Counted from the first letter of the stretch, positions 23,645 through 53,610 are shown. The stretch is 64,000 nucleotides of DNA from Candidatus Egerieisoma sp. (GCA_045580735.1 JAZNOJ010000053.1:9362-73361); one strand, 5' to 3'. The notes: generated by a model not told the origin, from the letters alone. Numbers and translations are program-made.

Positions 23645-26101
23645 TTATTCAGTTACTGTTTCATCCTCAGTTGTAGAGTCATCATCAGCTACTGTTTCGT
23701 CTTGTATAAATGTTTCACCATTTATTATATAAGATTCATTTGTAAGCTCATCATAGAATCTTATTAAATCATTGATTGTTAATGCTTCATCAGTAACAGT
23801 GCAATCTGTTAATGTAATAACAACATTCTCCATTGCTTCAATTGACATTATTGGATTAAATACGCAATTAACGAGCTCTGCACTACCATAAATTCTAAGC
23901 ATATTAAATTCAGGAACAGCATGCTCTTCGAAAACACAATTTTCCATGTAAACATTAACATCGGTTGCGAATGAAGTCCATCCAGAAATTACACAGTTCT
24001 TGAAAATAACATCACCTGAGCCTTCAAAGTGAGCTCCGTATATCTCGCCTTTGAAAACACAGCCATCAAATACAACTGTGTCTGATACTTCAGAACCATA
24101 TAATCCGTTTGTACCTTCGAATGTACAATCTACAAATTCACCTGAGCCTGAAATTACAGCAGATGTATCATCCTCGCTTTTAAATATTACATTTTCAACC
24201 TTTACATCCTCTTTAATAACCGGTTTATCTGAAATAACAGTATCACCGTTACCAACGATTGTTACTCCACTTGGAATTGAATCTCCAATTTCATAAGAAC
24301 CATTTTCAAGAATTATAGTATCACCTGCTGTAGAATTATCAATTACATCCTTTAATTGTTCTTGTGTTTCAACCTTTGTTGGAGTAAAATCATAAATTCT
24401 ACCATTAATAATTGCTGTTGAGCTAAATTCTTCAAATACAGCTACATCTAAAAGATTTGAAATATCACAGCCGTCAGAAACTACACAATTATCTAATTTA
24501 ACAGTTACATCATTATTTTGAACATCAATTACATAATCACAATCGAAAGTTGAATTTGATACTGTAGCATCATTATAGAATCTAAGCTGACTATAGAATT
24601 TACCAGCTTTAAATGTTGTATTATCAATAGAAACATCTAAGCCATTAGCAAATGATGACCATCCTGAAACAAGGCAATCATTAATTGCAACCTTACCATT
24701 ACCAAGGATATTTAAAGCATAAACAGCACCGATAAATGAACAGTTATTAAATGTTACTTCATCACTAACAGTTGCAGGTTTAACAGCTGATGCACCGTCA
24801 AATATACAATTATTGAATATAGCTGAACCATTAAAAGTTAAAGCTACTAAATTATCGTTTTCAAATTTAACTGTATCAAAAACAACATCTTTAAGATTAT
24901 TTAGGCTAAGACCTGTATTTTCATCAGCATTTACAATTACAGTACCTACTGTACCCATAATTGTAATTCCTTCAGGAAGCTCATTTGGAAGAGTGAATTT
25001 TCCTGAACCAAGATTAATAACATCTCCAACATTTGTATTGCTTAAAGCAGCATCAAAAGAATCCTGTGTTGTTATATATTCAACAGTTGGTTTTTCTTCT
25101 TCTTCATAAAAACCAGCAATTGTTCTTCTGATTACAACAACATCCTTTGTGTTGATTTCATTATCAGAATTATAATCAGCATATGCTAAATTCATATCGA
25201 GATCCTGCCAATTAGCAATATGTCTACGAATTAAGGCAACATCAGATGTAGTAAGAATACCATCCTCATTAACATCGCCTGCTTTTATTTCTAAATCTGA
25301 TACAACAACATATGCAGCATTATAAACACCTTCAACAGGAACAGCTGATACATTAATTATTACATCTTCTCCACAGAAAACATCAAATTCAAGGAATTTA
25401 ATTTCTCCATTATCTATTCCATTTTCTGATAATTTATAAACATTTGCACCAACAGTAGCTGTAATTTCTACTTCAGTTCCTTCCAAAGCATTTGAAACGT
25501 AAAGTCTAGCTGTTTTATCTTCGTTAGCTGTCCAAGAGTAAGTAACACCATCCTTATCTCCTTCGTCTAAATCAGTAGCTAAACTGTCAACATTAGAAAC
25601 ATTCATTGGATTAGAATCTGTGCCTTCTGGATAAGCAAATTTTAAATTAATCTTTGCATCGAAGCCTGAAAAGTTCAAAATCCAAAAAGTAATTGTCGCT
25701 TCTGAATCTAAAGCATCTATTGGGAAGAAATCTTTAACATAAACATCTTCCTGTGATGTACCGGCAATCTCAGAAATGACAGTATGAACATCAATTTCAG
25801 CTTTATCAAAATTAGTAATATATAAATCCATACCACCAATTTTACCTTCAAAATATGTCCATGAATTTGCAGGAAGTACAGTGTCAAAATTATAGCTTTC
25901 AATCTTTATAGGATTTGATTCTGTACCTAAAGTAGCATCTGTTACATCTTCAGTAGTTGTATCTTCTACTGCTCCATCATTGGCTGTTCCTGCTGTAACA
26001 GATTCATCTGCACCAGAAATTTCTTCGGCGCTAACAGGAACAACTGCTAACATCGTTACCATAATTGCTAATGCAATTAAAAGTGAAAGAATTTTTTTCA
26101 T
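23645..26101 (-). CDS. Secreted dockerin-containing protein with two tandem right-handed beta-helix (pectate-lyase/NosD-like) modules
   Basis: The signal peptide is MKKILSLLIALAIMVTMLAVVPVSAEE. An internal type-I dockerin duplicate (GDVNEDGILTTSDVALIRRHI ... DYNSDNEINTKDVVVIRRTIAG) lies at aa ~275-340. Two homologous ~220-aa modules with repeated N[CD][VI]F..G motifs occupy aa ~348-575 and ~580-800. Confidence 0.75.
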   Translation of the reverse strand: MKKILSLLIALAIMVTMLAVVPVSAEEISGADESVTAGTANDGAVEDTTTEDVTDATLGTESNPIKIESYNFDTVLPANSWTYFEGKIGGMDLYITNFDKAEIDVHTVISEIAGTSQEDVYVKDFFPIDALDSEATITFWILNFSGFDAKINLKFAYPEGTDSNPMNVSNVDSLATDLDEGDKDGVTYSWTANEDKTARLYVSNALEGTEVEITATVGANVYKLSENGIDNGEIKFLEFDVFCGEDVIINVSAVPVEGVYNAAYVVVSDLEIKAGDVNEDGILTTSDVALIRRHIANWQDLDMNLAYADYNSDNEINTKDVVVIRRTIAGFYEEEEKPTVEYITTQDSFDAALSNTNVGDVINLGSGKFTLPNELPEGITIMGTVGTVIVNADENTGLSLNNLKDVVFDTVKFENDNLVALTFNGSAIFNNCIFDGASAVKPATVSDEVTFNNCSFIGAVYALNILGNGKVAINDCLVSGWSSFANGLDVSIDNTTFKAGKFYSQLRFYNDATVSNSTFDCDYVIDVQNNDVTVKLDNCVVSDGCDISNLLDVAVFEEFSSTAIINGRIYDFTPTKVETQEQLKDVIDNSTAGDTIILENGSYEIGDSIPSGVTIVGNGDTVISDKPVIKEDVKVENVIFKSEDDTSAVISGSGEFVDCTFEGTNGLYGSEVSDTVVFDGCVFKGEIYGAHFEGSGDVIFKNCVISGWTSFATDVNVYMENCVFEEHAVPEFNMLRIYGSAELVNCVFNPIMSIEAMENVVITLTDCTVTDEALTINDLIRFYDELTNESYIINGETFIQDETVADDDSTTEDETVTE

Positions 26102-35683: not shown

Positions 35684-37159
35684 TCAAACAATATCTCCTG
35701 AATCAAATGGGTCTCCACATTCCGGGCAGAATTTAGGAGCTTTTGTAGGATCAGCAGGCTCCCAGCCACATTTATCGCATTTATATTGTGGAACACCTTC
35801 CGGCTTTTTTGCTCCACATTGCTGGCAGAACTTTCCTTTATTTACAGATCCACATGTGCAGGTCCATCCATCAGCCTGTGCTGGCTTTGGAGCTCCACAC
35901 TCAGGACAGAATTTACCACTTGTGACTGCACCACATGCGCATTTCCAACCTCCTTCGACAATCTGAGGTTCAGGCTTTGCCTTACCACAATTAGGACAGA
36001 ACTTTCCGTTTACATTTGCACCACACGCGCATGTCCAAGTATTTGTTGCTGGTACAGAATTTTGAGCTTGTTGTTGCATTTGTTGCTGCTGTTGCATTTT
36101 CATTTGCTCTTCCTGAACTGCTTGATTATAGAAACTTTGAGCAGCATTAAAGCCACCACCCATTCCACCAGCATTCATTGCCATTCCCATGCCCATAAAG
36201 CCCGTCATTGCACCTGCGGTATTTCCGGCTGCAATTTCCATAGCATTAGCTGAGGCTGTTGTCATTCTTCCTGCCATTGCTCTTGCATTTGAACCATATG
36301 AAGCAGAACTCTCAAATTCATTAATTATCTTCATATCCTCAGGTGTTAAGCTTATAGGATTAAGTGTGATTTTTTCTATTGAAATACCACGTGTTTCTAT
36401 CCAATCTGTCTTAAGAGTTTCATTCATTGCATCCTTGAGCTCTTTTGTCTTACCTGAAAGCTGTGCTGGCTTTAATTCCATATCAGATAAAACACCAAAA
36501 GCAGGAATTAAAGCATCTATAAATTCGCCCTTTAGTTGTTCATCAATTTCCTCTCTTCTATATTCGTCTGCAACATTACCACATACTCTTGTATAAAATA
36601 GGAGAGGATCTTTTAGAATATATGAATACATACCGTTACATCTTACATTAACAGTTCTCGAAAGTCCAAGCTCTTTATTTTTGATTTCAAACATAATTGG
36701 AGTTGGTGTGCCGAATTTATTTCCCATAATTTCTTTTGTATTAAAGTAATAAACTCTTTGATCCTTGCCTGTATCTCCACCATAAGCAAAACGCTTACCG
36801 AATGTTTTAAAGGATTGAATAATACTTTCACCTAAGCTTCCTGAAAATATTGAAGGCTCTGTAGATGAATCGTATGTAAACTCACCCGGCTCTGCACAAA
36901 CCTCAACAATCTTACCCTGCTCAACAATAATCATACACTGTCCATCAGCAACAGCTATTCCTGAGCCGTTAGAGATAATATTATCATTTGCTTTTGTATT
37001 TGAAGAACGTCCACTTACACGTTTTTGACCTTTTTTCATTAATACATCCATTTCTATTGCGTCGCAATAGAAAAATTCTTTCCATTGATCTGCCAACATT
37101 CCTCCGGCAGAACCTAATGCAGCTTTAATTAAACCCATATTAAAAACCCCTTTTAACAA
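35684..37159 (-). CDS. SPFH/band-7 (stomatin/prohibitin-like) domain protein with four C-terminal zinc-ribbon repeats
   Basis: The C-terminus has four W.C.CG...GKFCP.CG..KP zinc ribbons after a poly-Gln linker (MQQQQQMQQQAQ). This architecture, an SPFH domain followed by C-terminal zinc ribbons, matches COG4260. Confidence 0.6.
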   Translation of the reverse strand: MLKGVFNMGLIKAALGSAGGMLADQWKEFFYCDAIEMDVLMKKGQKRVSGRSSNTKANDNIISNGSGIAVADGQCMIIVEQGKIVEVCAEPGEFTYDSSTEPSIFSGSLGESIIQSFKTFGKRFAYGGDTGKDQRVYYFNTKEIMGNKFGTPTPIMFEIKNKELGLSRTVNVRCNGMYSYILKDPLLFYTRVCGNVADEYRREEIDEQLKGEFIDALIPAFGVLSDMELKPAQLSGKTKELKDAMNETLKTDWIETRGISIEKITLNPISLTPEDMKIINEFESSASYGSNARAMAGRMTTASANAMEIAAGNTAGAMTGFMGMGMAMNAGGMGGGFNAAQSFYNQAVQEEQMKMQQQQQMQQQAQNSVPATNTWTCACGANVNGKFCPNCGKAKPEPQIVEGGWKCACGAVTSGKFCPECGAPKPAQADGWTCTCGSVNKGKFCQQCGAKKPEGVPQYKCDKCGWEPADPTKAPKFCPECGDPFDSGDIV

Positions 37160-37283: not shown

Positions 37284-37315
37284 TTAACAAAACGGGCCTT
37301 GAAGTTATATATGAC
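37284..37315 (-). terminator. Rho-independent terminator of the Ca2+-ATPase gene
   Basis: Perfect 12-bp stem GGGCCTTGAAGT (tatatatg) ACTTCAAGGCCC, located immediately 3' of the stop. Confidence 0.7.
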
Positions 37316-37348
37316 TTCAAGGCCCCTGAGGAGATATTAGAAAATAAA

Positions 37349-39982: not shown

Positions 39983-40013
39983 TTTCGAGAATCCTTTCCG
40001 TTTATTATTTCTC

Positions 40014-40170
40014 ATAAAAAAACTCACGGACATATGTTGTAGTGCATACATCCATGAGTCTGGTTATTTAATCCAAGCCAAGCCAAACAGGCTGAGTGTT
40101 GAACTTGAACCGTATAATGAAAATATACCATCATACGCTAACTACTCCCTCATGTGTGAGTTCGTTTATT
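40014..40170 (-). ncRNA. Structured 5' leader of the P-type ATPase; candidate yybP-ykoY (Mn2+/Ca2+) type riboswitch with a terminator-like expression platform
   Basis: Minus sense: 5' strand AACUCAC (plus 40156-40162) pairs with GUGAGUU (plus 40021-40027), enclosing about 130 nt that contain GGGAGUAG (plus 40142-40149). Downstream lie the hairpin GGAUGUAUG-n8-CAUAUGUCC, then GUGAG and U7 (plus 40016-40022). The sigma-A promoter sits just upstream. Confidence 0.35.
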
Positions 40171-40175
40171 TTTCT

Positions 40176-40203
40176 AGTATACTCTATCAAAATTATTTGT
40201 CAA
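40176..40203 (-). promoter_or_regulatory. Sigma-A promoter for the ATPase leader
   Basis: Minus sense, TTGACA (plus 40198-40203) - 16 nt - TATACT (plus 40176-40181). The predicted TSS is near 40169, at the start of the P1 5' strand. Confidence 0.5.
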
Positions 40204-40318: not shown

Positions 40319-41326
40319 ATGAAAACAGCACTAATTGGTCTTGGACGTATTGGGTGGCATTTTCACCTACAAGAAATACTTAATCATAAAGAATATTCTT
40401 TATGCGCTGTAGTTGATACAAGCCTCGAGCGTCTAAAAGAAGCTAAAGAAAAATATGGAATCAATGGATATCAAGATTATCAAGAAATGCTTGAAAAGGA
40501 AAAACCACAGCTTACAGTAATTGCGTCACCCACAATATTCCACGAGGAGCATGCAATCAAAGCTATGGAGCAGGGCTCTGATGTAATCTTAGATAAGCCA
40601 ATGGCGCAAAATGAAGAATCAGCAAAAAGAATTTATGACGCACATATAAAATTAAATAAAAAGCTCATTATTTATCAGCCACACAGATTCACAGCAGAGG
40701 CTGTCGTTGCTAAAGAAATAATAGAAAGCGGAAAGCTTGGACCATTATTTGACATAAAAAAAGCATGCGTTGGATATTCCAGAAGAAACGATTGGCAAGC
40801 ATTTAAGGATTTAGGTGGTGGCATGATGATGAATTATGGCGCACACTATATTGACCAGCTTATATATTTGTCAAACGAAAAGGTTATAGAAACATATAGC
40901 ATAACAAATAAAGTAGCCTCATTAGGTGATGCAGAGGACGTTGTAAAGCTAGTAATGAAAACAGACAAAGGTACAATATTGGATATCGATATAAGCCAAG
41001 CCTCTGCAATAATACTCCCCTCTCTAGTTATTTATGGAGAATATGGTGCCGCATTATTGAAAGAAGATATACATGGTCTTTGTTTTAATTTAAAATATTT
41101 TGACCCTAATAAATTACCACAAAAGACTGTATCAAGAAAAATGGAGGCTGAAGGTAGAGCATATCCATCAGAATCAATCAATTGGATTGAAGAGACAATC
41201 CCTGTATCAAATGATAAAGCAAAAAGCTTCTATAAAGAATGTTACGGTTACTTTTCAGGTACAGACGCTTCTCCTATCCCAGTTAACGAAACGATGGAAG
41301 TGATGAGAATACTTGCGCTTCAGTAA
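40319..41326 (+). CDS. Gfo/Idh/MocA-family NAD(P)-dependent oxidoreductase
   Basis: The N-terminus MKTALIGLGRIGWHFHLQEI is a Rossmann GxGxxG motif. Length is 335 aa. Confidence 0.85.
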   Translation: MKTALIGLGRIGWHFHLQEILNHKEYSLCAVVDTSLERLKEAKEKYGINGYQDYQEMLEKEKPQLTVIASPTIFHEEHAIKAMEQGSDVILDKPMAQNEESAKRIYDAHIKLNKKLIIYQPHRFTAEAVVAKEIIESGKLGPLFDIKKACVGYSRRNDWQAFKDLGGGMMMNYGAHYIDQLIYLSNEKVIETYSITNKVASLGDAEDVVKLVMKTDKGTILDIDISQASAIILPSLVIYGEYGAALLKEDIHGLCFNLKYFDPNKLPQKTVSRKMEAEGRAYPSESINWIEETIPVSNDKAKSFYKECYGYFSGTDASPIPVNETMEVMRILALQ

Positions 41327-41340
41327 AGGAAGTTGATTTT

Positions 41341-42429
41341 ATGAAAAAAGCAATAGACCATTACAAATATTTACATCAGCATCCTGAGCTTTCAGAAAAT
41401 GAATTTAATACAGCAAAATACGTATATGATGCTCTTATCGAATACGGCTATAAGAGCGTAATGTTGACTGAAAATGGTGTTTATGCAGATTTGATAGTTA
41501 ATACAAATAATCCTTACGTCATTTTCCGAGCAGATATGGATGCTCTTCCACTCAAGGAAGAAAGCCCTGTTTCATATAAATCTAAAATTGATGGAGTTAT
41601 GCATGCTTGTGGACACGATAGTCACACTGCCATGTTATTAGAGGCTGCTTATCATCTTCATAATTCAAAGCTTCCATTTAACATAAGATTTATATTTCAA
41701 CCTGCAGAAGAAGGAACTAAAGGTGCTAGAGCGTTGATTTCAAAGGGTGTACTTCCCCAAAATTTAAAAGCTGCCTTTTCTATTCACGTATGGCCAGATA
41801 TACCCAAAGCAAAAATTGCAACAAAAACCGGACCGATTATGGCCTCAGGCGATTTATTACGTATTAATTGCTATGGAAAAAGTGCACATTGCTCTAAAAG
41901 AGAAAAAGGCTCTGATGCATTAATGACAGCAATTGAAATTGCCTCTAAATTCGATGAGATTGAAAAATCCGTCAATGATGAGTTAATATTATTTTGCGGA
42001 AGCCTTCACGGAGGTTCAAGTCACAACATAGTTGTAAATGAAGCATATATAAGAGGAGCACTAAGAACCTTTTCAGAAGAAACAAGAAGTAATATATTAA
42101 ATAAAATAAAACATGAAATAAAGAAAATCGGTGAAAAATTTAATGTACAAACAGAGTTAATATTAGAAAGCCAATCTCCTGTTGTAATAAATGATGAAAC
42201 AATTGTAAAACAAATATTTGATATTTTTCCCGATGCTTACTGCCTGGATGCTCCAACGTATGCAGCAGAAGACTTTTCATATTATTTACAGCATTGCAAA
42301 GGAGCAGAGCTTTGGTTAGGTCTCGGTGAATCTGTACCGCTTCACGATAATCGCTTTTATGTCCCTGAAGAAATTCTCCCCTACGGTGTAAATGCATGGA
42401 TAAAAATCGCCAATAATATCAAAATATAA
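41341..42429 (+). CDS. M20D-family amidohydrolase (N-acyl-amino-acid amidohydrolase / hippuricase-like)
   Basis: MHACGHDSHTAMLL metal-binding motif, 362 aa. Confidence 0.85.
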   Translation: MKKAIDHYKYLHQHPELSENEFNTAKYVYDALIEYGYKSVMLTENGVYADLIVNTNNPYVIFRADMDALPLKEESPVSYKSKIDGVMHACGHDSHTAMLLEAAYHLHNSKLPFNIRFIFQPAEEGTKGARALISKGVLPQNLKAAFSIHVWPDIPKAKIATKTGPIMASGDLLRINCYGKSAHCSKREKGSDALMTAIEIASKFDEIEKSVNDELILFCGSLHGGSSHNIVVNEAYIRGALRTFSEETRSNILNKIKHEIKKIGEKFNVQTELILESQSPVVINDETIVKQIFDIFPDAYCLDAPTYAAEDFSYYLQHCKGAELWLGLGESVPLHDNRFYVPEEILPYGVNAWIKIANNIKI

Positions 42430-42462
42430 TGTCAAATTAAAAAATATAAAGGAGTTAATATC

Positions 42463-43506
42463 ATGATTGAAAATTCTAAAAACATTGTTCTCAACGAAGA
42501 AGCACTCAACGAGCTACTTACTACACCTTCTGATGGTCTTATCGAGGATATCGCAAAAATTAAAGGTGATATAATGGTTCTTGGTGCAGGTGGAAAGATG
42601 GGTCCTGACATTTGTATTCTAGCAAAAAAAGCAATTGACAAAGCTGGAATAAATAAAAATGTATATGCTGTATCAAGATTTTCAGAAAAAGCAGCCGCAC
42701 AAAGATTAGAAGCCTTTGGTATAAAAGTTATTTCTGCTGATTTATCTGAGGATGGTGCTTTAGAAAAATTACCGGATTGTGAAAATATCATTTTTATGGC
42801 TGGTAAAAAGTTTGGCACAAATGGAAGTGAATATCTTACATGGGGAATGAATTCTTGGCTTCCATGTATGACCGCCAGAAGATTTTCGAAATCAAATTTC
42901 GTTGTTTTCTCAAGCGGAAATATTTATCCAAAAGTACCAACTTGTAGTGGAGGTGCTACTGAAGAAACTCCAACATACCCTATAGGAGAATACTGTATGT
43001 CCTGCTTGGCTAGAGAAAGAGCCTTTGAATATGCTGCAAAAACGCGTGGTGCTAAAGTATGTATAATGCGTTTAAATTATGCAATAGATTTACGTTATGG
43101 TGTTCTTCATGATATTTCTCAAACAATATTGTCCGGAAAGCCTGTTGATTTAGCTGCAATGCCAAGCTTTAATTGCATATGGCAAAAGGATGCGAATGAA
43201 GCAGCTATAAGATTATTGCTACATACAAGTGAAGAAATGAATATAGTTAATGTAACAGGACCTGAAACTGCCGGTGTTAAACAAACAGCAATATTACTCG
43301 CAAAAGCACTGGGAAAGGAAGTTACATTTATTGGAGAGGAAGCCTCAACAGCATATCTAAACAATGCCGGAAAAATGTTTAAAATGTTTGGGTATCCAAC
43401 ATATTCACTCGATAAATTAATTGAAATGCAAGCTGCATGGCTTTTAAACGGTGGAAGAAGCCTCGGTAAGCCTACACATTTTGAAGAAAGGAATGGAAAT
43501 TATTAA
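42463..43506 (+). CDS. NAD-dependent epimerase/dehydratase-like (extended SDR / NmrA-like) protein
   Basis: MVLGAGGKMGPDI Rossmann motif near the N-terminus, 347 aa. The exact family is uncertain. Confidence 0.55.
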   Translation: MIENSKNIVLNEEALNELLTTPSDGLIEDIAKIKGDIMVLGAGGKMGPDICILAKKAIDKAGINKNVYAVSRFSEKAAAQRLEAFGIKVISADLSEDGALEKLPDCENIIFMAGKKFGTNGSEYLTWGMNSWLPCMTARRFSKSNFVVFSSGNIYPKVPTCSGGATEETPTYPIGEYCMSCLARERAFEYAAKTRGAKVCIMRLNYAIDLRYGVLHDISQTILSGKPVDLAAMPSFNCIWQKDANEAAIRLLLHTSEEMNIVNVTGPETAGVKQTAILLAKALGKEVTFIGEEASTAYLNNAGKMFKMFGYPTYSLDKLIEMQAAWLLNGGRSLGKPTHFEERNGNY

Positions 43507-44561
43507 TGGACAGACATATAGAAGCTTTAAAAATATTACACAAAGGAACAGTCATTCCTGCTATTCCACTAGCGCTAACCAACGAACGAAAATTCGATGA
43601 AGAAAGCCAACGTAGAATGGTGCGATATTATTTAGCCGCAGGCTCAGGTGGTATAGCAGCTGCAGTTCATAGCACACAATTTGAAATTAGAGAGCCTCAA
43701 CATAACTTATTTGAGCCTGTATTAAGGGCTGTAGCAGAGGAAGTAGACAAATTTGAGGCTAAAAACGGAAAAACAATAATTCGTATCTCCGGTGTATGTG
43801 GCCTTAAAGAGCAAGCTACAAAGGAAGCAGAGCTAGCAAAAAAATATGGCTACGATGCTGTTCTTTTAAGTCCAGGTGGCTTAAATCATTTATCTGAAGA
43901 AGAATTATTAGAAAGAACAGAAGCTGTTTCAAAGGTTCTGCCGGTAATTGGTTTTTATCTTCAAGAAGCTGTAGGAGGCAGAAAGCTGAGTAAAAATTAC
44001 TGGAAAGAGCTTGCAAATATTGAAAATGTTGTTGCAATAAAATGTGCATGCTTCGATAGATATTGTACACAAGACCTTGTTAAAGGCGTGATGGAGTCAA
44101 ATCGTTGTGAAGCTGTTGCACTTTACACAGGAAACGACGATCATATTGTTACTGATTTATTAACCCCTTTCACATTAGAATCAAATACAGGTGTAAAGCA
44201 AAAACACTTTGTAGGCGGTCTTTTAGGACAATGGTCAGTATGGACAAAAAAAGCTGTTGAAATATTTGAAAAATGTGTGAAAGCAAGAGAATCAGGTTGT
44301 ATTCCAACTGAGCTTTTAAATATTGGTGAGCATTTAACAGAGTGTAATGGTGCTGTATTTGATGTAGCAAATAAGTTTGCAGGCTGTATTCCCGGTCTTC
44401 ATTATGTACTCATGAAGCAAGGCTTGATGAAAGGAACATGGTGTCTGAATCCTAATGAAATCCTCTCCCCTTGTCAAGCTGAGGAAATTGACAGAGTAGC
44501 CAAGGCTTATCCAGAAATAATTGATGATGATTTTGTAAAAGATTTTCTTAAAAATGACTAA
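43506..44561 (+). CDS. DapA-like class I aldolase / dihydrodipicolinate-synthase-family protein (putative)
   Basis: 351 aa. The N-terminal GTVIPAIPLALT...GSGGIAAAVHSTQFE resembles the DapA family GxTGE region. Its ATG overlaps the previous stop (TAATG), indicating translational coupling. Confidence 0.4.
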   Translation: MDRHIEALKILHKGTVIPAIPLALTNERKFDEESQRRMVRYYLAAGSGGIAAAVHSTQFEIREPQHNLFEPVLRAVAEEVDKFEAKNGKTIIRISGVCGLKEQATKEAELAKKYGYDAVLLSPGGLNHLSEEELLERTEAVSKVLPVIGFYLQEAVGGRKLSKNYWKELANIENVVAIKCACFDRYCTQDLVKGVMESNRCEAVALYTGNDDHIVTDLLTPFTLESNTGVKQKHFVGGLLGQWSVWTKKAVEIFEKCVKARESGCIPTELLNIGEHLTECNGAVFDVANKFAGCIPGLHYVLMKQGLMKGTWCLNPNEILSPCQAEEIDRVAKAYPEIIDDDFVKDFLKND

Positions 44562-44637: not shown

Positions 44638-47600
44638 TCAATCAAAAAAACCAAGTGTTATCAATGCCTTCATCGCTCTATCAATATACCCTTCATCGAT
44701 AAGCGGCCAGTTAAAGCCCAGACGATACAAAGCCTTAATGGTAAACTCATTTTCTTTTCCAATCATTCTGTATGACTTATCATGAGTATTATAAGAAATT
44801 AAAGCAGATATTGACATATTACGTTCTTCATCAGATAAGCCTTCTGTAAAGAATTTATTAAATTCCTCTTCATCGACGATTTTAATATTTATTGAGTTTT
44901 TCCTTAACACCTCTAATACATTAAACATATGAACAGTATGACAGCTATAGGTATGAAATACTGTGTATTTATCAGGAGCTCCGGCAAGAGTAATAATTGC
45001 CTTTGCAGTATAATCCACAGGTGAAAACTCTGCCCTCATATCCAGACTACCAATCGGAAATGCCCCAATTGCGTAATATGCCTTTATTCTATTCATAAAT
45101 CCATTTGTATTAAAGTTTGCCTGGAACTCACCATCCGCCTCTCTGCTCATAAGGTTTCCGACTCTCATAATCTTGCCACGTAAGCCTTTTTCTTTTATTG
45201 CACTTAGAACAGCCTTTTCTGCTTTCCATTTTGTATAAGCATATTTATTATCAATCATTTGCCCAAAGTCCAGCATATTCTCTCTTAGCTCAATTGTATT
45301 TGGTAAGCTATCATTTACATTTGCACCAGCTATACTCGTTGTTGATACCTGTACAAGCTTTTTATTAAGAACAGCACATATTTCTATAAGATTTTCAACT
45401 CCATTAAAATTAATTTTTTCCAGAATATCATCCGATGTAAAATGCTTAACACATGCTGCACAATTAATAATTGTATCAAATTCAATTTGCTTTAAAGAAT
45501 CAAGAAGCTTTTTATCTGTAATATCTCCATTAACAACAATTATTTTATCTCCGAAAAGCTCTTCCATTGGATCATCGAAATAATACATAAGAAGTGTCTT
45601 TAATCGTGCCTCTGCTGATGTTTTCTTTCCTGGTCTTACCAGACAATAAATTTTTGGTGTACCCGCCTCTATTAATTGTTTAACAACGTGTATTCCTAAA
45701 AATCCGGTTGAACCAGCAACCAAAACGTTTCCTATATCAGAATATGTGATATTTACCGCTTCAGTAGGAATATTATATTTCAATACATCATAAAGATTCT
45801 CTTCGTTTAATGAAAAAGCTTCAAGCATGTTATCAGCTTTTTTAGAAGCATTGTTGCTTTGAGTATCTATTTTTATCTCTCTTGAAGTACCACGCTGCTT
45901 CATAACAAACTCTGATAGCTTTTGAGGTGTTGAATAATCAAATACATCCTTATAAACAACAGGAATATTTTCAACCATACATTTCATTGCAATCTTTGAT
46001 GCTAATAGTGAAGTGCCACCTAATAAAAAGAAATCATCATCTGCAAATACCTCATCTATACCTAGCACCTGTGCGAACATATCACAAAATCTCTTTTCAG
46101 TATCATTTGTCGGCTTTACTCCCGCATTGCTTCGTGTTGAAATAACAGGCTCCGGAAGAGCTTTTTTATTAACTTTTCCATTTTGAGTCATTGGCATCTT
46201 ATCTAGCTTCATGAATACTGACGGAACCATATATTCTGTCAATGATTTTTTCAAATATGAAACAAGTTCATTTTCGTCAACATTTTCCTTGGCTGTATAA
46301 TATCCACATAAGAATTGACCCTGCGCCTCACTTCCTTTTAACAAAACAACACTTTGATTAATAGCTTCAAAAGAATTCATCGCACCTTCAATCTCATCAA
46401 GCTCAACTCTTAAACCTCTTAGCTTAACCTGATTATCCATTCTTCCCATAAATAATATTTTACCTTCAAAATTATAACGTGCCATATCTCCGCTTTTGTA
46501 GGCAGGCATATCATTATATTTGAAAAACTTTTCATTTGTAAGCTCGTCATTTCCAACGTATCCACGTCCTACACCAGCCCCGGTAATTGTTAGCTCACCG
46601 GGTGCATAAGGTGGTAAGCAATTGCCGTTTTTATCTAGAATATAAACACCGGCATTTGCAAGAGGTCCGCCAATAGTAATATAATCACTCGTTATATGGT
46701 CAATTGTAGCTGATACTGTAATTTCAGTTGGTCCGTAGCTATTGCTTATATCAGCCATAACACCTGCAGCTCGAAGCTTTTTATATAAAGAGGCTGGAAA
46801 TGCTTCAGCACCAATTACCATATATTTTATCTTACATAAAGCTTCATGTGTTTGTGGTATATCAAGCATATTGTTCATATATGATGGTGTGCATTTGATA
46901 ACATCAACATTATTTCTAATAAGCATATTTGCAAGTAAAATAGGATTGTGAATTTCTTCCTCAGTCGCCATAGCTACTGTAGCTCCATTATATAAAGGAG
47001 CCATTTCCTCAACAATTGAAACATCAAAGGTTAACGCTGCTAATGCAAGAACAACTCTTTCACTATTTGCAAATTCCTTATAGCCGTAAGCTTTTGGATT
47101 ATTTTTATTATTCATTACAAAGTTTGTAAGATTTCTATGCTCAATCATTACTCCCTTAGGCTTACCGGTAGAACCTGATGTAAAAATACAATAAGCAAGA
47201 TTATTAGGATTAATTAGTACGTTTGGATTACTAATTTCATCTGACTTAAGTATATCTTCTATACATAAAGCTCTATACTGCGAAAACAACTCAGTTCTGT
47301 TTTTTAATACATCATTTGTAGTAATAATGATTTTAGCATTTGCCCCGGAAAGAATATAACCTATTCTTTCGTCAGGATATTCAGGAGAAATAGGAACAAA
47401 TGCACCGCCGGATTTTAATACTCCTTGCCGTGCAGCATATGCATTAATACATCTTGGCATAATAACTGCTATCTTATTTTCAGGTTGAACGCCCTCGGAA
47501 ATCAATGTATTTGCAACTCTGTTTGCATTTTCATTTAATTCTCTATAAGTAATACTTTGATTTTCACATATAACTGCAAGCTTTTCAGGATTATTCTCAA

Positions 47601-50600
47601 CTGAACGCTCAAAAAGCTTATTTGCAGTAATAGGTTCATTTGTAGTTTCTGTATCATTAAAGCTCTTAATCATTGATGCTGCATTATCTGAAAGTATAGA
47701 TACTTCCTTAAGCTTCTTTTTGTTTACAAATTCTGTCATTGCCTTTTCAAGAGCTTCCATAAAGCCTTCAATATATTTTCTACTAAATTTACCAGCGTTA
47801 TATTCACAAACCCAACAAATTTTTCCATTTTTCAAAAATACATTTACGTTTAATGGTGCTTTTGCACTGTCTAAGCTTAGCTCTATCATTTTAGCAGGTT
47901 CACTGCACAAGGAATCAAAAACGAACTCACTTCCTTGATAAGCAAACATTACATCAGCCCTTGCACCAAGCTCCCTGCTTATTTCTGCAAATGAATATAT
48001 ATCATATGTCATGCTATCTAAGAGCTGTTTTCCAACTTGTGCAACATATTCATTTACCAGCTTTTGAGAATCTTCTATATTAATTACTACAGGTAATGTT
48101 TTTACAAGCATTGAGATAGTATTTGTTAATCTTGAATCACTTCTGCCATTATAAATACTTGCAAAAGATAATATTTCATTACCATTATATTTTGATAGTA
48201 CAAAGCCAAATACGGCAGTAAAAAACGCATTCATACCAAGCTTATTTACATCACAATAATATTTAACATCCTCTGCAGTAAGAGCACTACTAATATATTC
48301 AAATGATTCTGCCTTCTGTAATTCATTCTTTTTTACATCACCAAGCGGCAAGCTTTCTTTTTCTGCATCAGCTAAAAGCGACTTATAATAATTTTTAGCC
48401 TTTTCAAAGAAACTACTCTTACGAAGTGTACTTTCATTTAATACAACCTCATAACCACTATATTTTTCTATTTCCAAAGTTTCTTCCTTATATGCTTTTG
48501 ATATATCATTTAAGAAAATAAGCATAGATGAACCATCACTAATAATATGATGCATTTCTATTAAAATATATAATTTATCGGCATCTATAATTTTAACTCT
48601 AAATAAGCTGCCGCCAATTAGCTTAAATGGTTTTACAAGATTATCTTTTATCTCCTCTAACGATGAAGCCTTTATAATTTCAATAGAAGCTTCATCAAAT
48701 GAATAATCTCCGTCCATTCTTCTCTGTCTTAAATCACCCTCCTCGTTCAAAAACATACGAGTTTTTATATATGGATGTGCATTAACTGCTGCGACAACTG
48801 CTGACTTAAGCTTATCTATATCCAAATTTCTGCTTATTTCAAGTAAAACCGGAATATTATAAACTGTAGCATCAGGCTTAGAAACTGACTCGACATAAAT
48901 ACCTTCCTGTGTTTTAGAAATTGCGTAGTCATTTAATATTTCAAACTTTTCTTCCTCAACACTATTAGCAAAAAATTCTTCCAGCTTAAGAATTGTATCA
49001 TTTTCCTTCAAATCAGAAGTTTTAACATTAAAATTAAATTCCTCGGATAATGCTACATTAAGTCTAACTGCTCCAATAGAAGTAAGGCCAGCTTCATAGA
49101 TATTTGTTTTTATTCCAAACTCCTTATGACCAACAACCTCTGAAATACAATCAAAAAGTCTCTGCTGAATATCATTTTGCGGAGGTATTGCATCTACAGC
49201 TTTTCTTTTCGGAACTGGCAACGCTCTTTTATTAACCTTTTGATTTTGATTATATGGAATAGCAGAAATTTGCATAGTTACAGCAGGTACCATATAAGGT
49301 GGCTTCTCTTCTAAAATAAAGCTGTTTAGAGCATCAATATCAATTTCCTCATCAGAAACAATATATGCAGCAATATATTTTCCACCTGAAGGTTCTTCAA
49401 AGGCAGCTACTGTCGCATCCCTTATACCTTCAAAACGTCGTATAACCTCTTCTACCTCAGTAAGCTCAATTCTAAAGCCTCTTATTTTAACCTGTGCATC
49501 TCTACGACCAATAAATTGAATTTTTCCATCACCCATATATCTTACTATATCGCCTGTATGGTAAACTCTGCTATAATCTTCATCATCAGAAAAAGGATTA
49601 TTAGTAAATGCTGCTGCTGTTTGTTCAGGTCTATTTAAGTACCCTCTTGAAACCTGAGGTCCGGAAATCCATAGCTCACCAACAGCACCTACCGGAAGTA
49701 GCTTGCCATTAGAATCGGTCACGTAAAGCTTAATATTATCTGTTGCTTTTCCGATAGGAACATCAATATATTTTTTATCAACATGAAATGCTGTCATAAA
49801 TACAGTACACTCTGTAGGACCATACGCGTTATACAAAGCATATTTTTCAGGAGGATTTACTGGTACAAGCTTTTCACCACCCACAAGCAAATACTTTAAT
49901 TTTTCAGGTGCCTGCATTAATGCAAATTGCCTTCCAACCTGAGTTGTAATAAATGCGTTCGTTACATTCTCTTTTGTATATAATTCTTGTAAAGCTTTTA
50001 AATCTAATCTTAATGCTTCAGAAACTATTAATACAGTTGCACCTGCAGTTAAAGTTGGATATAAATCCATCATGCAAGCATCAAAGCCATAGCTGGCATA
50101 TGCAGCAGCAACGGAATTTTGTGTAAGCTCAAATTTTGTTCTAAAATAATCACAAAAAGCAATTAAATTTCTATGCTCAAGCATTACGCCCTTAGGAAGC
50201 CCTGTAGAACCTGATGTATAAAGCATAATAAATAAATCTTCAGGTTTTGGTAATCTAAGCTCTACATCTAAGTCCTTCATATTTTCAATTTCAGAAAGCA
50301 TTATTCTTCTGCCTTTAAATTCATCGTTAATGATAGAATCATATTCAGGTACTGTTATTAATATTTTTGCATTTGAATCTTGTACCATTAAATTCAGTCT
50401 TTCCGGAGGATAAGTCGGATCTAATGGTAAATATGCACAGCATGCCTTTAAAATACCCATCGAGCATAGAACTATATATTCACTTCTAGGTATAAGAACT
50501 GCAATTACATCCTCTTTACCTACTCCCATAATATTCAAATTCTTTGCTAATTTATCAGATATTAAATCTACATCTTTATATGTTAATCTCTTTTCTTCAT

Positions 50601-53600
50601 ATATTACTGCAATGCTTTCAGGTGATTTTTTAACATTATTTTTAAACAATTCAACTATTGTTGCATTTTTATCATATGCTTTATGTGTAATATTAAACTT
50701 ATCTATTTCCTTTCTGAGCGCAGCATCAATTAATTCAATATCATTTAATTTTTCTAATGCCAACATTCCCTTTACGATTGATATAAACATACTAGCAAGA
50801 CTGTTCATTATTTCTTTACTGTAAAGCTCAGAGCGATAATTTATAATAACCTCATACGAATCCTTACCCTTTAAAACCATTACATTTATATCAAATTGCA
50901 CATCCCCTGTTTCGGGATTAACAATAGGGCAATATTCATTTTCTATCATAGCACCATTAAGTAAATCAGCTTGATAAACAAAAGCAATATCTGCTCTTAT
51001 AGAATATTGTGATGCAAGCTCTCCAAAGGATATGCAGTCATGCTTCATTGTTTCAAAGAAATAATTCTGCGTGTTTTTTAAATATTCCTTTACACTCATG
51101 CTTTCATCAAATTCAAAAAACAAAGGCAATGTTTTTACAAACATACCTACTGAATTTTCCAATCTAGAATCATGTCTTCCATTATTTACTGTACAGAATA
51201 TAGAATCCCTTGCACCATTAAATTTAGCAAGAGCATAAGCAAAAGCACCAAGAAACAGTGTATTTTCTGTAATACCATTATTTCTGACAAAATGTATAAC
51301 CTCTCGAATTTTAACATCCTCATTTAAAGAAACACTTAGCTTTCCAGCACCCTTATCAGTCTTTAATACAATATCGGGAACAGGTCTGGAATCAGCATCT
51401 ACTGCGCTAAGCTTATTTTCAAAATACTTCTGTGCTTCCTTATACTCCTTAGTATCCTTTAACACTTCCTCATACCTTGATATATCAAAAATTGTCAATT
51501 CTTCTGTCTTGATTTCTTTTCCATTATACACATCTGCAATTTGATTCATTAATACTTTTACTGAGCTTCCATCAAAAACAATGTGATGTATATCAAAAAT
51601 AAAATATATTTTTTTATCACATTTTAAAATTTCCGCACGCCAAAGAGGACCATCTTTTAAATTAAATGGTTTTATAAATTCGTTTAGATATTCTTCAAAA
51701 TTACTAATTTCTTTAATTTCGATGTTCGCATTAACATTTGATAAAACCATCTGTGGTGTGTTATCAACAGTAATTCCTAAAACCTTATGGTTATTAAAAA
51801 CATAATTTATAGCATTTGCAAGCTTATTAACATCTACATTATTTGGCAAAATGCAATACATAGGAATATTATACATTTTCGATTCAGGCTCATTTATACA
51901 TTCTAAATATACACCCAACTGTGATTCGGTAAGAGGATATACATCTAAAAGCTCATCCTCATGCTCTATTAAAGCTTTAGAGCTATCTGCTTCAATTAAT
52001 TCTGATATTTTTTCGATAGTTCTTCCCATCAAAATGTGACTTGGTAAAAGTCCTTCAATATTAGCTTCTGATATAAGTGCAAGCACCTTTATTGAATCAC
52101 CGCCAAGACTTATAAAATCATCTTTTATGCCAATTTTTCCGCATCCTAATACTTTCTCAACACTTTTACAAAGCTTAATTTGAATATCATTTTCAGGAGC
52201 AACATATGCCTCCTTGTAATCATCTATTTTAGGTGCTTTTAATGCATTTCTATCAAGCTTTCCGTTTACATTTTTAGGCATTTCATCAAGCTTTTTAAAA
52301 AATCTAGGTATCATATAATCCGGTATAGAATCTTTAAGTTTTGCATGAATAACACTTTGAGATACATTATTATTCGATGTATAAAAAGCTGCAAGATATG
52401 TCTGTCCCATATTGTCATTAAATGCCTTAACAACTGAATTTGTGATTCCCTCTATACTATTTAGCAGATTTTCAATTTCAAGTGTTTCTACTCTTTGCCC
52501 ATTTATTTTTACCATCCAATCCTTACGATTAGAATAAACAAGATTTCCGTTATCATCAAAATAACCCATATCTCCTGTATGAACAAGTACACTTCCATCC
52601 TCTTGCTTTATAACCTTCCTTGCTGTCTCCTCTGAAAGCTTATAATAACACTTAAGGAAATTACCTTGAATACATATTTCTCCAATTTCTCCATTTTTAA
52701 CAGCATTGTTTTCATCATCTAATATATGAATTTTTACGTTATTTACTGCTTTTCCAATAGGTGTATTATCATATTTCTTATCGACCTTAAAATATGTTAC
52801 CGTTGCAATTGTTTCACTACTACCATAAAGGTTATATAAATCAAAATCCTCAAAATAAACACCGCTTAATCTTTCACTTCCCGTAAATACTCTTACAAGC
52901 TTAGCTGCTCCATTAAACATTCTAAGAAGCTGAGGACTAATAAACGAGGCAGTTATACCATTTTCATTAAAATATTTTTCCATTTCTCGTACATTTTTTC
53001 GTACATAATCACTTAAAATATGAATAGTACCTCCGCAATAGAGTGTAACTAAATATTCTAATACGAATGCTATGAAGGACATTGGCGCTGTAGCACCATA
53101 GATTATATTTTCTACATTATCAAATAAAAACTTTTGCCTTTGAACAGAAAAAGCCAAAGCAGCTATAGAATGTAATATTCCCTTTGGTTTACCTGTTGAG
53201 CCAGATGTATAAATAAGAAACGCATTATCCTCATCATCTAATATAATTGGCTCTATAGATTCATATGAATCTATATCATAAAAAAAATCCTCTCTTATGA
53301 TATATTTAGCATTACATTCTCCAACAATGTAATCTATTCTATCCTTTGGATATTCTTTAATAAGAGAAACAACACAGCAGCCTGCCTTTAATATGCCTAG
53401 ATAAGCCGCAATATATTCTGCTTTTCTATCTAGTAGTATTGCAACAACATCTCCGGGTATACATCCAAGCGAGATTAGCTTTGACGAAATTTTCGAGCTT
53501 AAGCTGTCAAGCTCCTCATATGTTGTATGCCTTTTAGCTTCATTATCTACAATAGCTGTTTTAGATGCATTATTTATAAAAATATCCCTCATTATTTCAA

Positions 53601-53610
53601 TATAATTCAT
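44638..53610 (-). CDS. Trimodular non-ribosomal peptide synthetase, A-T-C-A-T-C-A-T-R, with a terminal thioester reductase
   Basis: 2990 aa. A3/A10 motifs: A1 YTSGSTGKPKG / NGKLDR; A2 YTSGSTGLPKG / NQKVNKRAL; A3 FTSGSTGKPKG / NGKVNKKAL. T serines sit in LGGDSI (aa 506), GLTSIG (aa 1511) and GGTSLL (aa 2534). C domains carry HHIVFDGSS (aa ~675) and HHIISDGSS (aa ~1687). The C-terminal R domain has VLVAGSTGFLGIHVV (aa 2631-2645) and YAYTKWK (aa ~2790). There is no TE or E domain. The RBS GAGGGG lies upstream of the start. Confidence 0.9.
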   Translation of the reverse strand: MNYIEIMRDIFINNASKTAIVDNEAKRHTTYEELDSLSSKISSKLISLGCIPGDVVAILLDRKAEYIAAYLGILKAGCCVVSLIKEYPKDRIDYIVGECNAKYIIREDFFYDIDSYESIEPIILDDEDNAFLIYTSGSTGKPKGILHSIAALAFSVQRQKFLFDNVENIIYGATAPMSFIAFVLEYLVTLYCGGTIHILSDYVRKNVREMEKYFNENGITASFISPQLLRMFNGAAKLVRVFTGSERLSGVYFEDFDLYNLYGSSETIATVTYFKVDKKYDNTPIGKAVNNVKIHILDDENNAVKNGEIGEICIQGNFLKCYYKLSEETARKVIKQEDGSVLVHTGDMGYFDDNGNLVYSNRKDWMVKINGQRVETLEIENLLNSIEGITNSVVKAFNDNMGQTYLAAFYTSNNNVSQSVIHAKLKDSIPDYMIPRFFKKLDEMPKNVNGKLDRNALKAPKIDDYKEAYVAPENDIQIKLCKSVEKVLGCGKIGIKDDFISLGGDSIKVLALISEANIEGLLPSHILMGRTIEKISELIEADSSKALIEHEDELLDVYPLTESQLGVYLECINEPESKMYNIPMYCILPNNVDVNKLANAINYVFNNHKVLGITVDNTPQMVLSNVNANIEIKEISNFEEYLNEFIKPFNLKDGPLWRAEILKCDKKIYFIFDIHHIVFDGSSVKVLMNQIADVYNGKEIKTEELTIFDISRYEEVLKDTKEYKEAQKYFENKLSAVDADSRPVPDIVLKTDKGAGKLSVSLNEDVKIREVIHFVRNNGITENTLFLGAFAYALAKFNGARDSIFCTVNNGRHDSRLENSVGMFVKTLPLFFEFDESMSVKEYLKNTQNYFFETMKHDCISFGELASQYSIRADIAFVYQADLLNGAMIENEYCPIVNPETGDVQFDINVMVLKGKDSYEVIINYRSELYSKEIMNSLASMFISIVKGMLALEKLNDIELIDAALRKEIDKFNITHKAYDKNATIVELFKNNVKKSPESIAVIYEEKRLTYKDVDLISDKLAKNLNIMGVGKEDVIAVLIPRSEYIVLCSMGILKACCAYLPLDPTYPPERLNLMVQDSNAKILITVPEYDSIINDEFKGRRIMLSEIENMKDLDVELRLPKPEDLFIMLYTSGSTGLPKGVMLEHRNLIAFCDYFRTKFELTQNSVAAAYASYGFDACMMDLYPTLTAGATVLIVSEALRLDLKALQELYTKENVTNAFITTQVGRQFALMQAPEKLKYLLVGGEKLVPVNPPEKYALYNAYGPTECTVFMTAFHVDKKYIDVPIGKATDNIKLYVTDSNGKLLPVGAVGELWISGPQVSRGYLNRPEQTAAAFTNNPFSDDEDYSRVYHTGDIVRYMGDGKIQFIGRRDAQVKIRGFRIELTEVEEVIRRFEGIRDATVAAFEEPSGGKYIAAYIVSDEEIDIDALNSFILEEKPPYMVPAVTMQISAIPYNQNQKVNKRALPVPKRKAVDAIPPQNDIQQRLFDCISEVVGHKEFGIKTNIYEAGLTSIGAVRLNVALSEEFNFNVKTSDLKENDTILKLEEFFANSVEEEKFEILNDYAISKTQEGIYVESVSKPDATVYNIPVLLEISRNLDIDKLKSAVVAAVNAHPYIKTRMFLNEEGDLRQRRMDGDYSFDEASIEIIKASSLEEIKDNLVKPFKLIGGSLFRVKIIDADKLYILIEMHHIISDGSSMLIFLNDISKAYKEETLEIEKYSGYEVVLNESTLRKSSFFEKAKNYYKSLLADAEKESLPLGDVKKNELQKAESFEYISSALTAEDVKYYCDVNKLGMNAFFTAVFGFVLSKYNGNEILSFASIYNGRSDSRLTNTISMLVKTLPVVINIEDSQKLVNEYVAQVGKQLLDSMTYDIYSFAEISRELGARADVMFAYQGSEFVFDSLCSEPAKMIELSLDSAKAPLNVNVFLKNGKICWVCEYNAGKFSRKYIEGFMEALEKAMTEFVNKKKLKEVSILSDNAASMIKSFNDTETTNEPITANKLFERSVENNPEKLAVICENQSITYRELNENANRVANTLISEGVQPENKIAVIMPRCINAYAARQGVLKSGGAFVPISPEYPDERIGYILSGANAKIIITTNDVLKNRTELFSQYRALCIEDILKSDEISNPNVLINPNNLAYCIFTSGSTGKPKGVMIEHRNLTNFVMNNKNNPKAYGYKEFANSERVVLALAALTFDVSIVEEMAPLYNGATVAMATEEEIHNPILLANMLIRNNVDVIKCTPSYMNNMLDIPQTHEALCKIKYMVIGAEAFPASLYKKLRAAGVMADISNSYGPTEITVSATIDHITSDYITIGGPLANAGVYILDKNGNCLPPYAPGELTITGAGVGRGYVGNDELTNEKFFKYNDMPAYKSGDMARYNFEGKILFMGRMDNQVKLRGLRVELDEIEGAMNSFEAINQSVVLLKGSEAQGQFLCGYYTAKENVDENELVSYLKKSLTEYMVPSVFMKLDKMPMTQNGKVNKKALPEPVISTRSNAGVKPTNDTEKRFCDMFAQVLGIDEVFADDDFFLLGGTSLLASKIAMKCMVENIPVVYKDVFDYSTPQKLSEFVMKQRGTSREIKIDTQSNNASKKADNMLEAFSLNEENLYDVLKYNIPTEAVNITYSDIGNVLVAGSTGFLGIHVVKQLIEAGTPKIYCLVRPGKKTSAEARLKTLLMYYFDDPMEELFGDKIIVVNGDITDKKLLDSLKQIEFDTIINCAACVKHFTSDDILEKINFNGVENLIEICAVLNKKLVQVSTTSIAGANVNDSLPNTIELRENMLDFGQMIDNKYAYTKWKAEKAVLSAIKEKGLRGKIMRVGNLMSREADGEFQANFNTNGFMNRIKAYYAIGAFPIGSLDMRAEFSPVDYTAKAIITLAGAPDKYTVFHTYSCHTVHMFNVLEVLRKNSINIKIVDEEEFNKFFTEGLSDEERNMSISALISYNTHDKSYRMIGKENEFTIKALYRLGFNWPLIDEGYIDRAMKALITLGFFD

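Follow-up and report, generated by a model that had tools for sequence, protein, structure and literature searches.

A P-type ATPase reading frame on the minus strand of a 64,000-nt stretch of Candidatus Egerieisoma sp. DNA (GCA_045580735.1; hereafter, the window) continues upstream through a segment with the look of a structured RNA, raising the question of whether this segment belongs to the protein or forms a regulatory leader and, if the latter, what kind of leader it is and which signal it would read. On rereading the minus strand, we found every element that the initial annotation had placed here at the position assigned to it (Table 1). The proposed TTGACA-16 nt-TATACT promoter is present at 40203-40176 and matched 11 of 12 consensus positions in a promoter scan of the minus strand; from its spacing, transcription most likely starts at approximately 40170-40168, near 40169. 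The ribosome-binding site (GGAAAGGA, 39999-39992) and the ATG of MKHYLKD (39982-39980) were likewise recovered. About 187 nt of leader separate the promoter's start site from this ATG, and the minimum free energy of the leader is low relative to shuffled sequence (z = -3.4).

Table 1. Positions of the promoter, aptamer, expression platform, and ATPase gene in the window; RNA elements are listed in the 5' to 3' direction of the transcript.
Feature	Position	Strand	Basis or remark
Promoter -35 hexamer, TTGACA	40198..40203	-	Sequence and promoter scan
Promoter -10 hexamer, TATACT	40176..40181	-	Promoter scan
Outer-helix 5' strand, AACUCAC	40156..40162	-	Partner GUGAGUU, 40021-40027
P1.1 5' strand, CAUGA	40150..40154	-	Pairs with 40053-40057; covariance-model alignment
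L1 5' side, GGGAGUA (conserved metal-binding loop)	40143..40149	-	Matches GGGGAGUAG of E. coli mntP and the RF00080 consensus
P1.2 5' strand, GUUA	40139..40142	-	Partner UAAC, 40063-40066
P2 hairpin, CGUAUGAUGG, 7-nt loop, UCAUUAUACG	40111..40137	-	Minimum-free-energy fold
P3.1 5' strand, UUCAAG	40104..40109	-	Partner CUUGGA, 40072-40077
L3 5' side, U-UCAACA-CUC	40094..40103	-	Matches GUCAACAUAC of mntP and the RF00080 consensus
P3.2 hairpin, AGCC, UGUUU, GGCU	40081..40093	-	4/4 pairs covary, 96% of cells paired
L3 3' side, UGG	40078..40080	-	Matches UGGC in mntP and RF00080
P3.1 3' strand, CUUGGA	40072..40077	-	Covariation, model alignment
Junction UUAAA where P4 would be	40067..40071	-	Three-way-junction subtype, UNAAA
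P1.2 3' strand, UAAC	40063..40066	-	Covariation, model alignment
L1 3' side, C-AGAC	40058..40062	-	AGAC conserved; base before AGAC variable
P1.1 3' strand, UCAUG	40053..40057	-	Also within terminator 5' arm
Intrinsic terminator stem-loop, AGACUCAUGGAUGUAUG / CAUAUGUCCGUGAGUUU	40020..40061	-	Terminator scan, unconstrained fold
U7 tract	40016..40022	-	Sequence and terminator scan
Ribosome-binding site, GGAAAGGA	39992..39999	-	9 nt 5' of ATG; sequence
Start ATG	39982-39980	-	Sequence
Type IIA P-type ATPase CDS, 877 aa	37349..39982	-	Pfam, NCBIfam, homologue N-termini
Terminator 3' of ATPase gene	37294..37325	-	12-pair stem and T-rich tail

The gene that follows the leader encodes a type IIA P-type ATPase, in agreement with the proposal that a P-type ATPase is the regulated gene. 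Pfam identified Cation_ATPase_N, E1-E2_ATPase, hydrolase, and Cation_ATPase_C domains in the ORF; the best NCBIfam models were the PMR1-type, a Ca2+/Mn2+ pump family, at 665 bits and the SERCA-type at 650 bits, with the Mg2+ type IIIB model at 449 bits; and the nearest solved structure was that of LMCA1, a Ca2+-ATPase of Listeria (E = 3e-217), with human SPCA1 and SERCA next. Homology alone cannot settle the ion specificity of the pump. Orthologues of the gene were collected from 80 other Clostridia genomes. A reading of the region as coding, with the ATPase beginning at an ATG at 40051, 40033, or 40015 and the leader as an N-terminal extension, can point to a six-frame ORF of 900 aa that is open from 40051, but it is scarcely credible: alignments to most of the 80 homologues begin at residue 1 or 2 of the protein that opens with MKHYLKD, and these homologues have their own GGAGG-like ribosome-binding site at the same distance before the start; Cation_ATPase_N covers residues 4-70 of the 877-aa form; and the three upstream in-frame ATGs, all without a ribosome-binding site, fall within the terminator stem or immediately follow its U-tract. 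The true start of the ATPase is therefore the ATG at 39982, not 40051, as the initial annotation had suspected. The terminator 3' of the gene (37325-37294), together with a separate promoter for the next gene (37204-37175, 11/12 consensus matches), makes the ATPase unit monocistronic.

Within the leader, the aptamer spans 40154-40053 on the minus strand and runs in the order P1.1, L1, P1.2, P2, P3.1, L3, P3.2, UUAAA, P1.2', L1', P1.1', and it contains all of the loop nucleotides conserved in the yybP-ykoY class (GGGAGUA, UCAACA, UGG, and AGAC). The resemblance of the core to the conserved L1 of this class, noted from the sequence at the outset, was upheld: GGGAGUAG was located at 40149-40142 (aGGGAGUAG spanning 40150-40142), and its GGGAGUA is the same in E. 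coli mntP and in the RF00080 consensus. The 5' side of L3 (UUCAACAC, 40103-40096) carries the conserved class motif (G)UCAACAUAC, and the extra U at 40103 is common to 5 of the homologues (L001, L004, L006, L010, and L065). We take the first A of UCAA to be A41 in the L. lactis numbering. The N7 of A41 contacts Mn2+ in yybP-ykoY (PMC6649816). P2 has 10 pairs in the window, and the base of this helix covaries among the homologues. Two other readings of the same nucleotides were dropped. A three-codon leader peptide over L1 (AUG AGG GAG UAG) was dismissed, being composed of invariant riboswitch L1 nucleotides and lacking a ribosome-binding site, and a GAGU/ACUC pairing that RNAalifold placed in the MAFFT alignment instead of P1.1 was rejected, since its columns are invariant and the pairing thus gains no support from covariation, whereas the P1.1 of the class covaries.

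Conservation of the element was traced through the homologous loci. Approximately 40 of the 49 homologous loci carrying the motif have GGGAGTAG at 140-240 nt 5' of the start, and the leaders share one design, NNUGA - GGGAGUAG - NN - hairpin - CAAG-UCAACA - hairpin - CUGG-CUUG - UNAAA - NN - NAGAC - UCANN, followed by a terminator. We scored the structure formed by P1.1, P1.2, P2, P3.1, and P3.2 in a MAFFT alignment of 35 leaders (A1), in which 90% of cells were paired, compared with 31-44% after the 3' partners were slid by 1-3 columns; both partners change in 18 of 23 pairs, 153 cells are compensatory, and the observed covariation score was reached by none of 500 shuffles. A covariance model built from A1 (R1) was searched against the 80 ATPase loci and identified the element directly 5' of the ATPase in 67 of them, on the strand of the gene every time. 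These 67 leaders were then aligned to the model with the window left out (A2), and here 93% of cells were paired (30-40% when slid), all 23 pairs covary, and 454 cells are compensatory, again with 0 of 500 shuffles at the observed score. Because A2 was fitted to the model structure, its pair counts are somewhat inflated and A1 is the cleaner test; A1, which carries no model-fitting bias, agrees with A2 on the structure.

The same picture was obtained helix by helix. All 5 pairs of P1.1 covary among the homologues (for example, UGA/UCA is replaced by AAA/UUU or UAA/UUA), as do, in the 67-leader alignment, all 4 pairs of P1.2 (95.5% of cells paired) and all 6 of P3.1. In GGGAGUA and AGAC, every position is the same in 66-67 of the 67 leaders; UCAACA is near-invariant at its C, C, and A, with the pattern C-A...C-A conserved, and UGG keeps its GG in 60-61 of 67 homologues, with gaps in the remainder. 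The leader is more than a chance arrangement, and the most decisive ground for this is conservation, with invariant loops and strong covariation.

To place the element within a known family, we built a second covariance model (R2) from the 67 homologous leaders alone, leaving the window out, and searched it against 71.5 kb on both strands. The window was matched at 40156-40051(-) with 70.7 bits (E = 8e-15). The E. coli mntP riboswitch was matched over its full length (36.4 bits, E = 1.5e-6), with the P4 hairpin of mntP accommodated as an insertion at precisely the site of the UNAAA junction, and the E. coli alx riboswitch was matched at 19 bits (E = 0.025); no further matches were found in the 71.5 kb on both strands beyond the window, mntP, and alx.

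The Rfam model of the family gave a different result. RF00080 had been suggested as a check by cmscan, and it returned no match to the whole window at the gathering score (45 bits) and none to the leader at E <= 10, whether 371 nt or 118 nt were supplied; in Rfam E-value mode, the leader gave only chance-level matches (TEG147, snoRNAs, and a lncRNA). For the mntP riboswitch of E. coli, a validated member, the same model gave 44.9 bits (E = 3.9e-11), which is 0.1 bit under the cut-off of 45. It gave no matches at the gathering cut-off in the 27 homologous loci and 40 homologous leaders scanned and, in E-value mode, missed 11 of 12 homologous leaders. A homologous three-way-junction leader (L044) was matched at 24.8 bits (E = 2.1e-5), and its alignment is sensible only over RF00080 positions 13-88, corresponding to L1, P2, P3.1, L3, and P3.2. 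Positions from approximately 89 to 177 of RF00080 are long and weakly conserved, and the 3' side of P1.2, L1, and P1.1 is not modelled; three-way-junction leaders cannot fill this stretch, and only the 5' half of the model matches them. The negative RF00080 result on the window thus reflects the sensitivity of the model and not the nature of the RNA, and we infer that the 10-pair P2 and the extra U in L3 help push the window below the reporting limit. The window fails the 45-bit gathering cut-off, which is an operational threshold and not a biological feature. The initial annotation would have been abandoned for a leader with neither an Rfam match nor covariation; that combination was not found, covariation being strong.

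Several features that define the class were found together in the leader. The conserved nucleotides are GGGGAGUAG on the 5' side of L1, AGA(C) on its 3' side, and (G)UCAACAUAC with UGG(C) in L3; P1.1, P1.2, P2, P3.1, and P3.2 occur in order and covary; similarity to validated members is significant, as seen from the matches of R2 to the window, mntP, and alx; an expression platform competes with P1.1 in 59 of the 67 leaders analyzed, the window included; and the gene 3' of the element belongs to those associated with Mn2+ efflux or tolerance (MntP, TerC/Alx, UPF0016, and P-type II ATPase). The P4 helix, which gives members from L. lactis and E. coli a four-way junction, is absent, and UUAAA is found in the window instead. 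This absence is compatible with membership because a three-way-junction subtype is documented for the class (PMC6649816). A junction of 5-6 nt in the place of P4 was identified in 52 of 67 homologues (UUAAA 13 times and UGAAA 9 times), and a few homologous Clostridia leaders have a P4-like hairpin (e.g., L007, L050, and L051). The yybP-ykoY assignment made from the sequence at first sight was thus borne out by covariation, by R2, the covariance model from which the window was left out, and by the conserved loops, and we regard it as very probable that the leader belongs to the three-way-junction subtype of yybP-ykoY (Mn2+) riboswitches and acts as a transcriptional ON switch for the monocistronic type IIA P-type ATPase gene.

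The expression platform had been described as an intrinsic terminator consisting of a 9-bp hairpin, GUGAG, and U7. A terminator platform is supported by the terminator scan, by the fold, and by overlap with P1.1 in 59 of the 67 leaders analyzed, the window included. The hairpin and the U7 tract were confirmed, but not the extent of 9 pairs: the hairpin GGAUGUAUG/CAUAUGUCC is the inner part of one longer stem of 14-17 pairs formed by AGACUCAUGGAUGUAUG and CAUAUGUCCGUGAGUUU. The terminator scan gave 17 pairs over 40061-40020 followed by the T-run (chance expectation for the region, 0.3 such sites), and RNAfold gave 14 pairs on a slightly shorter stretch. The 5' arm of the terminator (AGACUCAUGGAUGUAUG) starts with AGAC of the 3' side of L1 and UCAUG, the 3' strand of P1.1. 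Because the 3' strand of P1.1 is part of the terminator 5' arm, the closed aptamer and the terminator are mutually exclusive, and this exclusion points to an ON switch. Folded without constraint, the leader adopted an OFF conformation with the terminator and intact P2 and P3 (-49.1 kcal/mol), and an ON fold at -45.4 kcal/mol was obtained when P1.1 and P1.2 were enforced.

By analogy with mgtA and yoaB, the leader most likely turns on a metal-exporting P-type ATPase by preventing early termination. At high Mn2+, the metal would bridge L1 and L3 and stabilize P1.1; the terminator 5' arm would then be sequestered, and RNA polymerase would read into the ATPase gene, whose product would export surplus Mn2+, and possibly Ca2+ as well. 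With little Mn2+ present, the terminator would be expected to win, and transcripts would end at approximately 40016-40022.

Among known systems, the S. pneumoniae mgtA leader (SN44) is similar to the window by its published description. It is a yybP-ykoY three-way junction that has an invariant UNAAA (N = U or G) in the place of P4, with an invariant AGA after a variable base on the 3' side of L1, a terminator hairpin directly after the aptamer, and a PII-type ATPase gene 3', and Mn2+ activates read-through (Martin et al. 2019, PMC6649816). The window shares the UNAAA junction (as UUAAA), the conserved 5' side of L1, AGA(C) after a variable base, the terminator immediately after the aptamer, the PII-type ATPase, and, as predicted, the logic of Mn2+-induced read-through. 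It differs in its host, a low-GC Clostridia genome rather than Streptococcus, and in the extra U of L3, the 10-pair P2, and the window-specific outer helix AACUCAC/GUGAGUU. The L. lactis yoaB (yaoB) riboswitch, for which a Mn2+-bound crystal structure is available (Price et al. 2015, cited in PMC6649816 and PMC11477304), is alike in the metal-site sequences of L1 (GGGAGUAG...AGAC) and L3 (UCAA...), in the competition between P1.1 and a terminator, and in a P-type II ATPase implicated in Mn2+ efflux; it forms a four-way junction with a P4 hairpin, whereas the window has no P4.

The E. coli mntP leader is laid out as GGGGAGUAG-CC-[P2]-GUACGUG-UCAACAUAC-[P3.2]-UGG-CACGUAC-[P4]-GGC-GAGAC-CAUAUG. 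Both mntP and alx share L1, L3, P2, P3.1, and P3.2 with the window, but they are four-way junctions, and the genes they precede encode MntP and TerC-family exporters rather than a P-type ATPase. Neither is known to use a simple terminator directly after the aptamer as its expression platform. A Mn2+ riboswitch has been predicted in the CD2503 leader of C. difficile, where the gene that follows encodes a cation-translocating P-type ATPase, an orthologue of the L. lactis protein (PMC11477304); by description, this predicted element resembles the window in its Clostridia-class host and in the P-type ATPase that lies 3'.

The riboswitch class, the three-way-junction subtype, the terminator platform, and the link to P-type II ATPases are all already published, and biologically the locus is routine, adding a further case of a Mn2+ riboswitch in front of a metal-efflux P-type ATPase. 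Its new value is modest and lies in a corrected start codon and in the finding that a subtype described in Streptococcus extends to many gut and rumen Clostridia, where it is widespread and largely invisible to the current Rfam model. Because Rfam misses this leader and most of its homologues, the subtype is probably under-counted in Clostridia genomes; a model from the present alignment would recover leaders missed by Rfam.

Other readings of the leader differ in what it would sense, if anything. Were it a ligand-independent attenuator, a constitutive or protein-controlled site of pausing or termination whose upstream hairpins have no sensing role, one would expect the terminator to be the thermodynamically preferred fold and the leader to be without an Rfam match, as is the case; such an attenuator nevertheless fails to explain why GGGAGUA, UCAACA, UGG, and AGAC are unpaired and invariant in 67 species beside covarying helices, or why the leaders cross-match 2 validated Mn2+ riboswitches, and we consider it very unlikely. 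Elements of the M-box (Mg2+) class regulate some Mg2+-transporting P-type ATPases, and RF00380 had accordingly been named as the alternative to yybP-ykoY. Searches with RF00380 at the gathering score and at E <= 10 gave no match, the leader has the architecture and the conserved nucleotides of yybP-ykoY, and the ATPase fits type IIA Ca2+/Mn2+ models better than the Mg2+ type IIIB model (665 versus 449 bits), so an M-box can be discarded.

The only serious alternative is Ca2+ as the physiological ligand. The fold would be the same, but the subtype located before Ca2+-ATPase-like pumps would sense Ca2+, or Ca2+ and Mn2+, and the pump would be chiefly a Ca2+ exporter. The ATPase is indeed closest to LMCA1 and to SERCA/SPCA pumps, and since the S. 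pneumoniae mgtA aptamer binds Ca2+ with higher affinity than Mn2+ in vitro (PMC6649816), Mn2+ is named here only as the presumed physiological ligand. In the same system, Mn2+ was far better than Ca2+ at activating mgtA read-through in vitro, and the in vivo reporter was induced by Mn2+ alone among the metals tested (PMC6649816); the metal-site nucleotides of L1 and L3 in the window are, moreover, identical to those of Mn2+-responsive members. With this evidence, a Ca2+-sensing leader appears quite unlikely, and Mn2+ remains the preferred ligand. We also see a small chance that the UNAAA three-way-junction form, which predominates before this ATPase family in Clostridia, is a functionally distinct subclass, tuned to Ca2+ or to Mn2+/Ca2+ to suit a Ca2+-ATPase-like pump, in which the outer helix could set the switching threshold at this locus.

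This outer helix, AACUCAC paired with GUGAGUU, had been put forward as a P1-like helix closing the aptamer. The pairing itself holds (-10.7 kcal/mol; z = -4.3 relative to shuffled versions of the 5' flank), but the closing role does not. The equivalent flanks of 62 homologous leaders showed no such complementarity, with a mean z of approximately 0 and 6 of 62 below -2, and the conserved closing helix, P1.1, is CAUGA/UCAUG; we thus rejected AACUCAC/GUGAGUU as the P1 of the aptamer. The outer helix is nested with P1.1 and arises spontaneously in the ON-state fold, to which it contributes approximately 9 kcal/mol (-45.4 kcal/mol, compared with -36.2 kcal/mol when the 5' flank was held single-stranded). 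It can form in the ON conformation only and brings the ON fold to within approximately 4 kcal/mol of the OFF fold by nearest-neighbour energies, and it may be either a lineage-specific stabilizer of the antiterminated state or a product of chance.

The outer helix AACUCAC/GUGAGUU of the window's yybP-ykoY leader encloses the aptamer together with the inner hairpin of the terminator, and stabilises the ON fold, in which the aptamer is closed and the full terminator stem cannot form, by about 9 kcal/mol. This pairing was specific to the window, with no conservation among the homologues; the flanks of one orthologous ATPase locus, L076, formed a pairing of similar strength (-13.3 kcal/mol).

In 4 of the homologous leaders (L017, L025, L026, and L033), no U-tract follows the hairpin that overlaps the 3' strand of the aptamer closing helix P1.1. 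These leaders have another strong terminator 50-60 nt downstream, and the arrangement suggests an expression platform of 2 hairpins, unlike the simple overlap in other leaders. Searching the 80 orthologous ATPase loci with R1, the covariance model built from 35 aligned leaders, gave no riboswitch match at E <= 1 in 13 loci (L015, L018, L024, L034, L040, L057, L059, L063, L066, L068, L070, L077, and L079). Leaders of other types were identified 3' of the ATPase gene in 2 loci: L037 has a ribosomal protein leader of the S10-Clostridia family that scored above threshold, and L078 has a sub-threshold T-box leader (70.3 bits vs a gathering score of 93). Both are unrelated to the riboswitch finding.

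The validated Escherichia coli mntP riboswitch scored 44.9 bits with the Rfam yybP-ykoY model RF00080, below the gathering score of 45, and was therefore missed by the scan at gathering level. The 3' half of RF00080 (approximately positions 89-177) aligned poorly, as seen with the homologous three-way-junction leader of L044, and did not cover the 3' side of P1.2/L1/P1.1.

Coordinates of the features described, numbered within the window or within each locus
Feature	Sequence	Position	Strand
Outer helix AACUCAC/GUGAGUU	window	40156-40162 with 40021-40027	-
P1.1-overlapping hairpin without U-tract, with second terminator	L017, L025, L026, L033	~1350-1470 in each	
mntP riboswitch	L081	1968-2058	
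Three-way-junction leader	L044	1313-1452	
Sub-threshold T-box leader	L078	4217-4408	
S10-Clostridia leader	L037	4296-4387	
Dockerin protein gene	window	23645-26101	-
SPFH/Band-7 protein gene	window	35684-37159	-
SPFH/Band-7 gene promoter	window	37204-37175	-
Small gene cluster	window	40319-44561	+
Non-ribosomal peptide synthetase gene	window	44638-53610	-

Elsewhere in the window, the gene next after that of the ATPase encodes an SPFH/Band-7 protein in which a glutamine-rich linker is combined with CxxC zinc-ribbon repeats arrayed at the C terminus; this gene has its own promoter (11/12 matches). An 818-aa protein carries a type I dockerin domain along with pentapeptide repeats, which suggests that the source organism is a low-GC (~33%), cellulosome-bearing member of the Clostridia. 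The 2,990-aa non-ribosomal peptide synthetase contains 3 AMP-binding, 2 condensation, and 2 carrier (PP-binding) stretches and a C-terminal NAD-dependent reductase domain; adjoining its gene is the small cluster, whose products are an oxidoreductase, an M20 peptidase, an epimerase, and a DHDPS-like enzyme.
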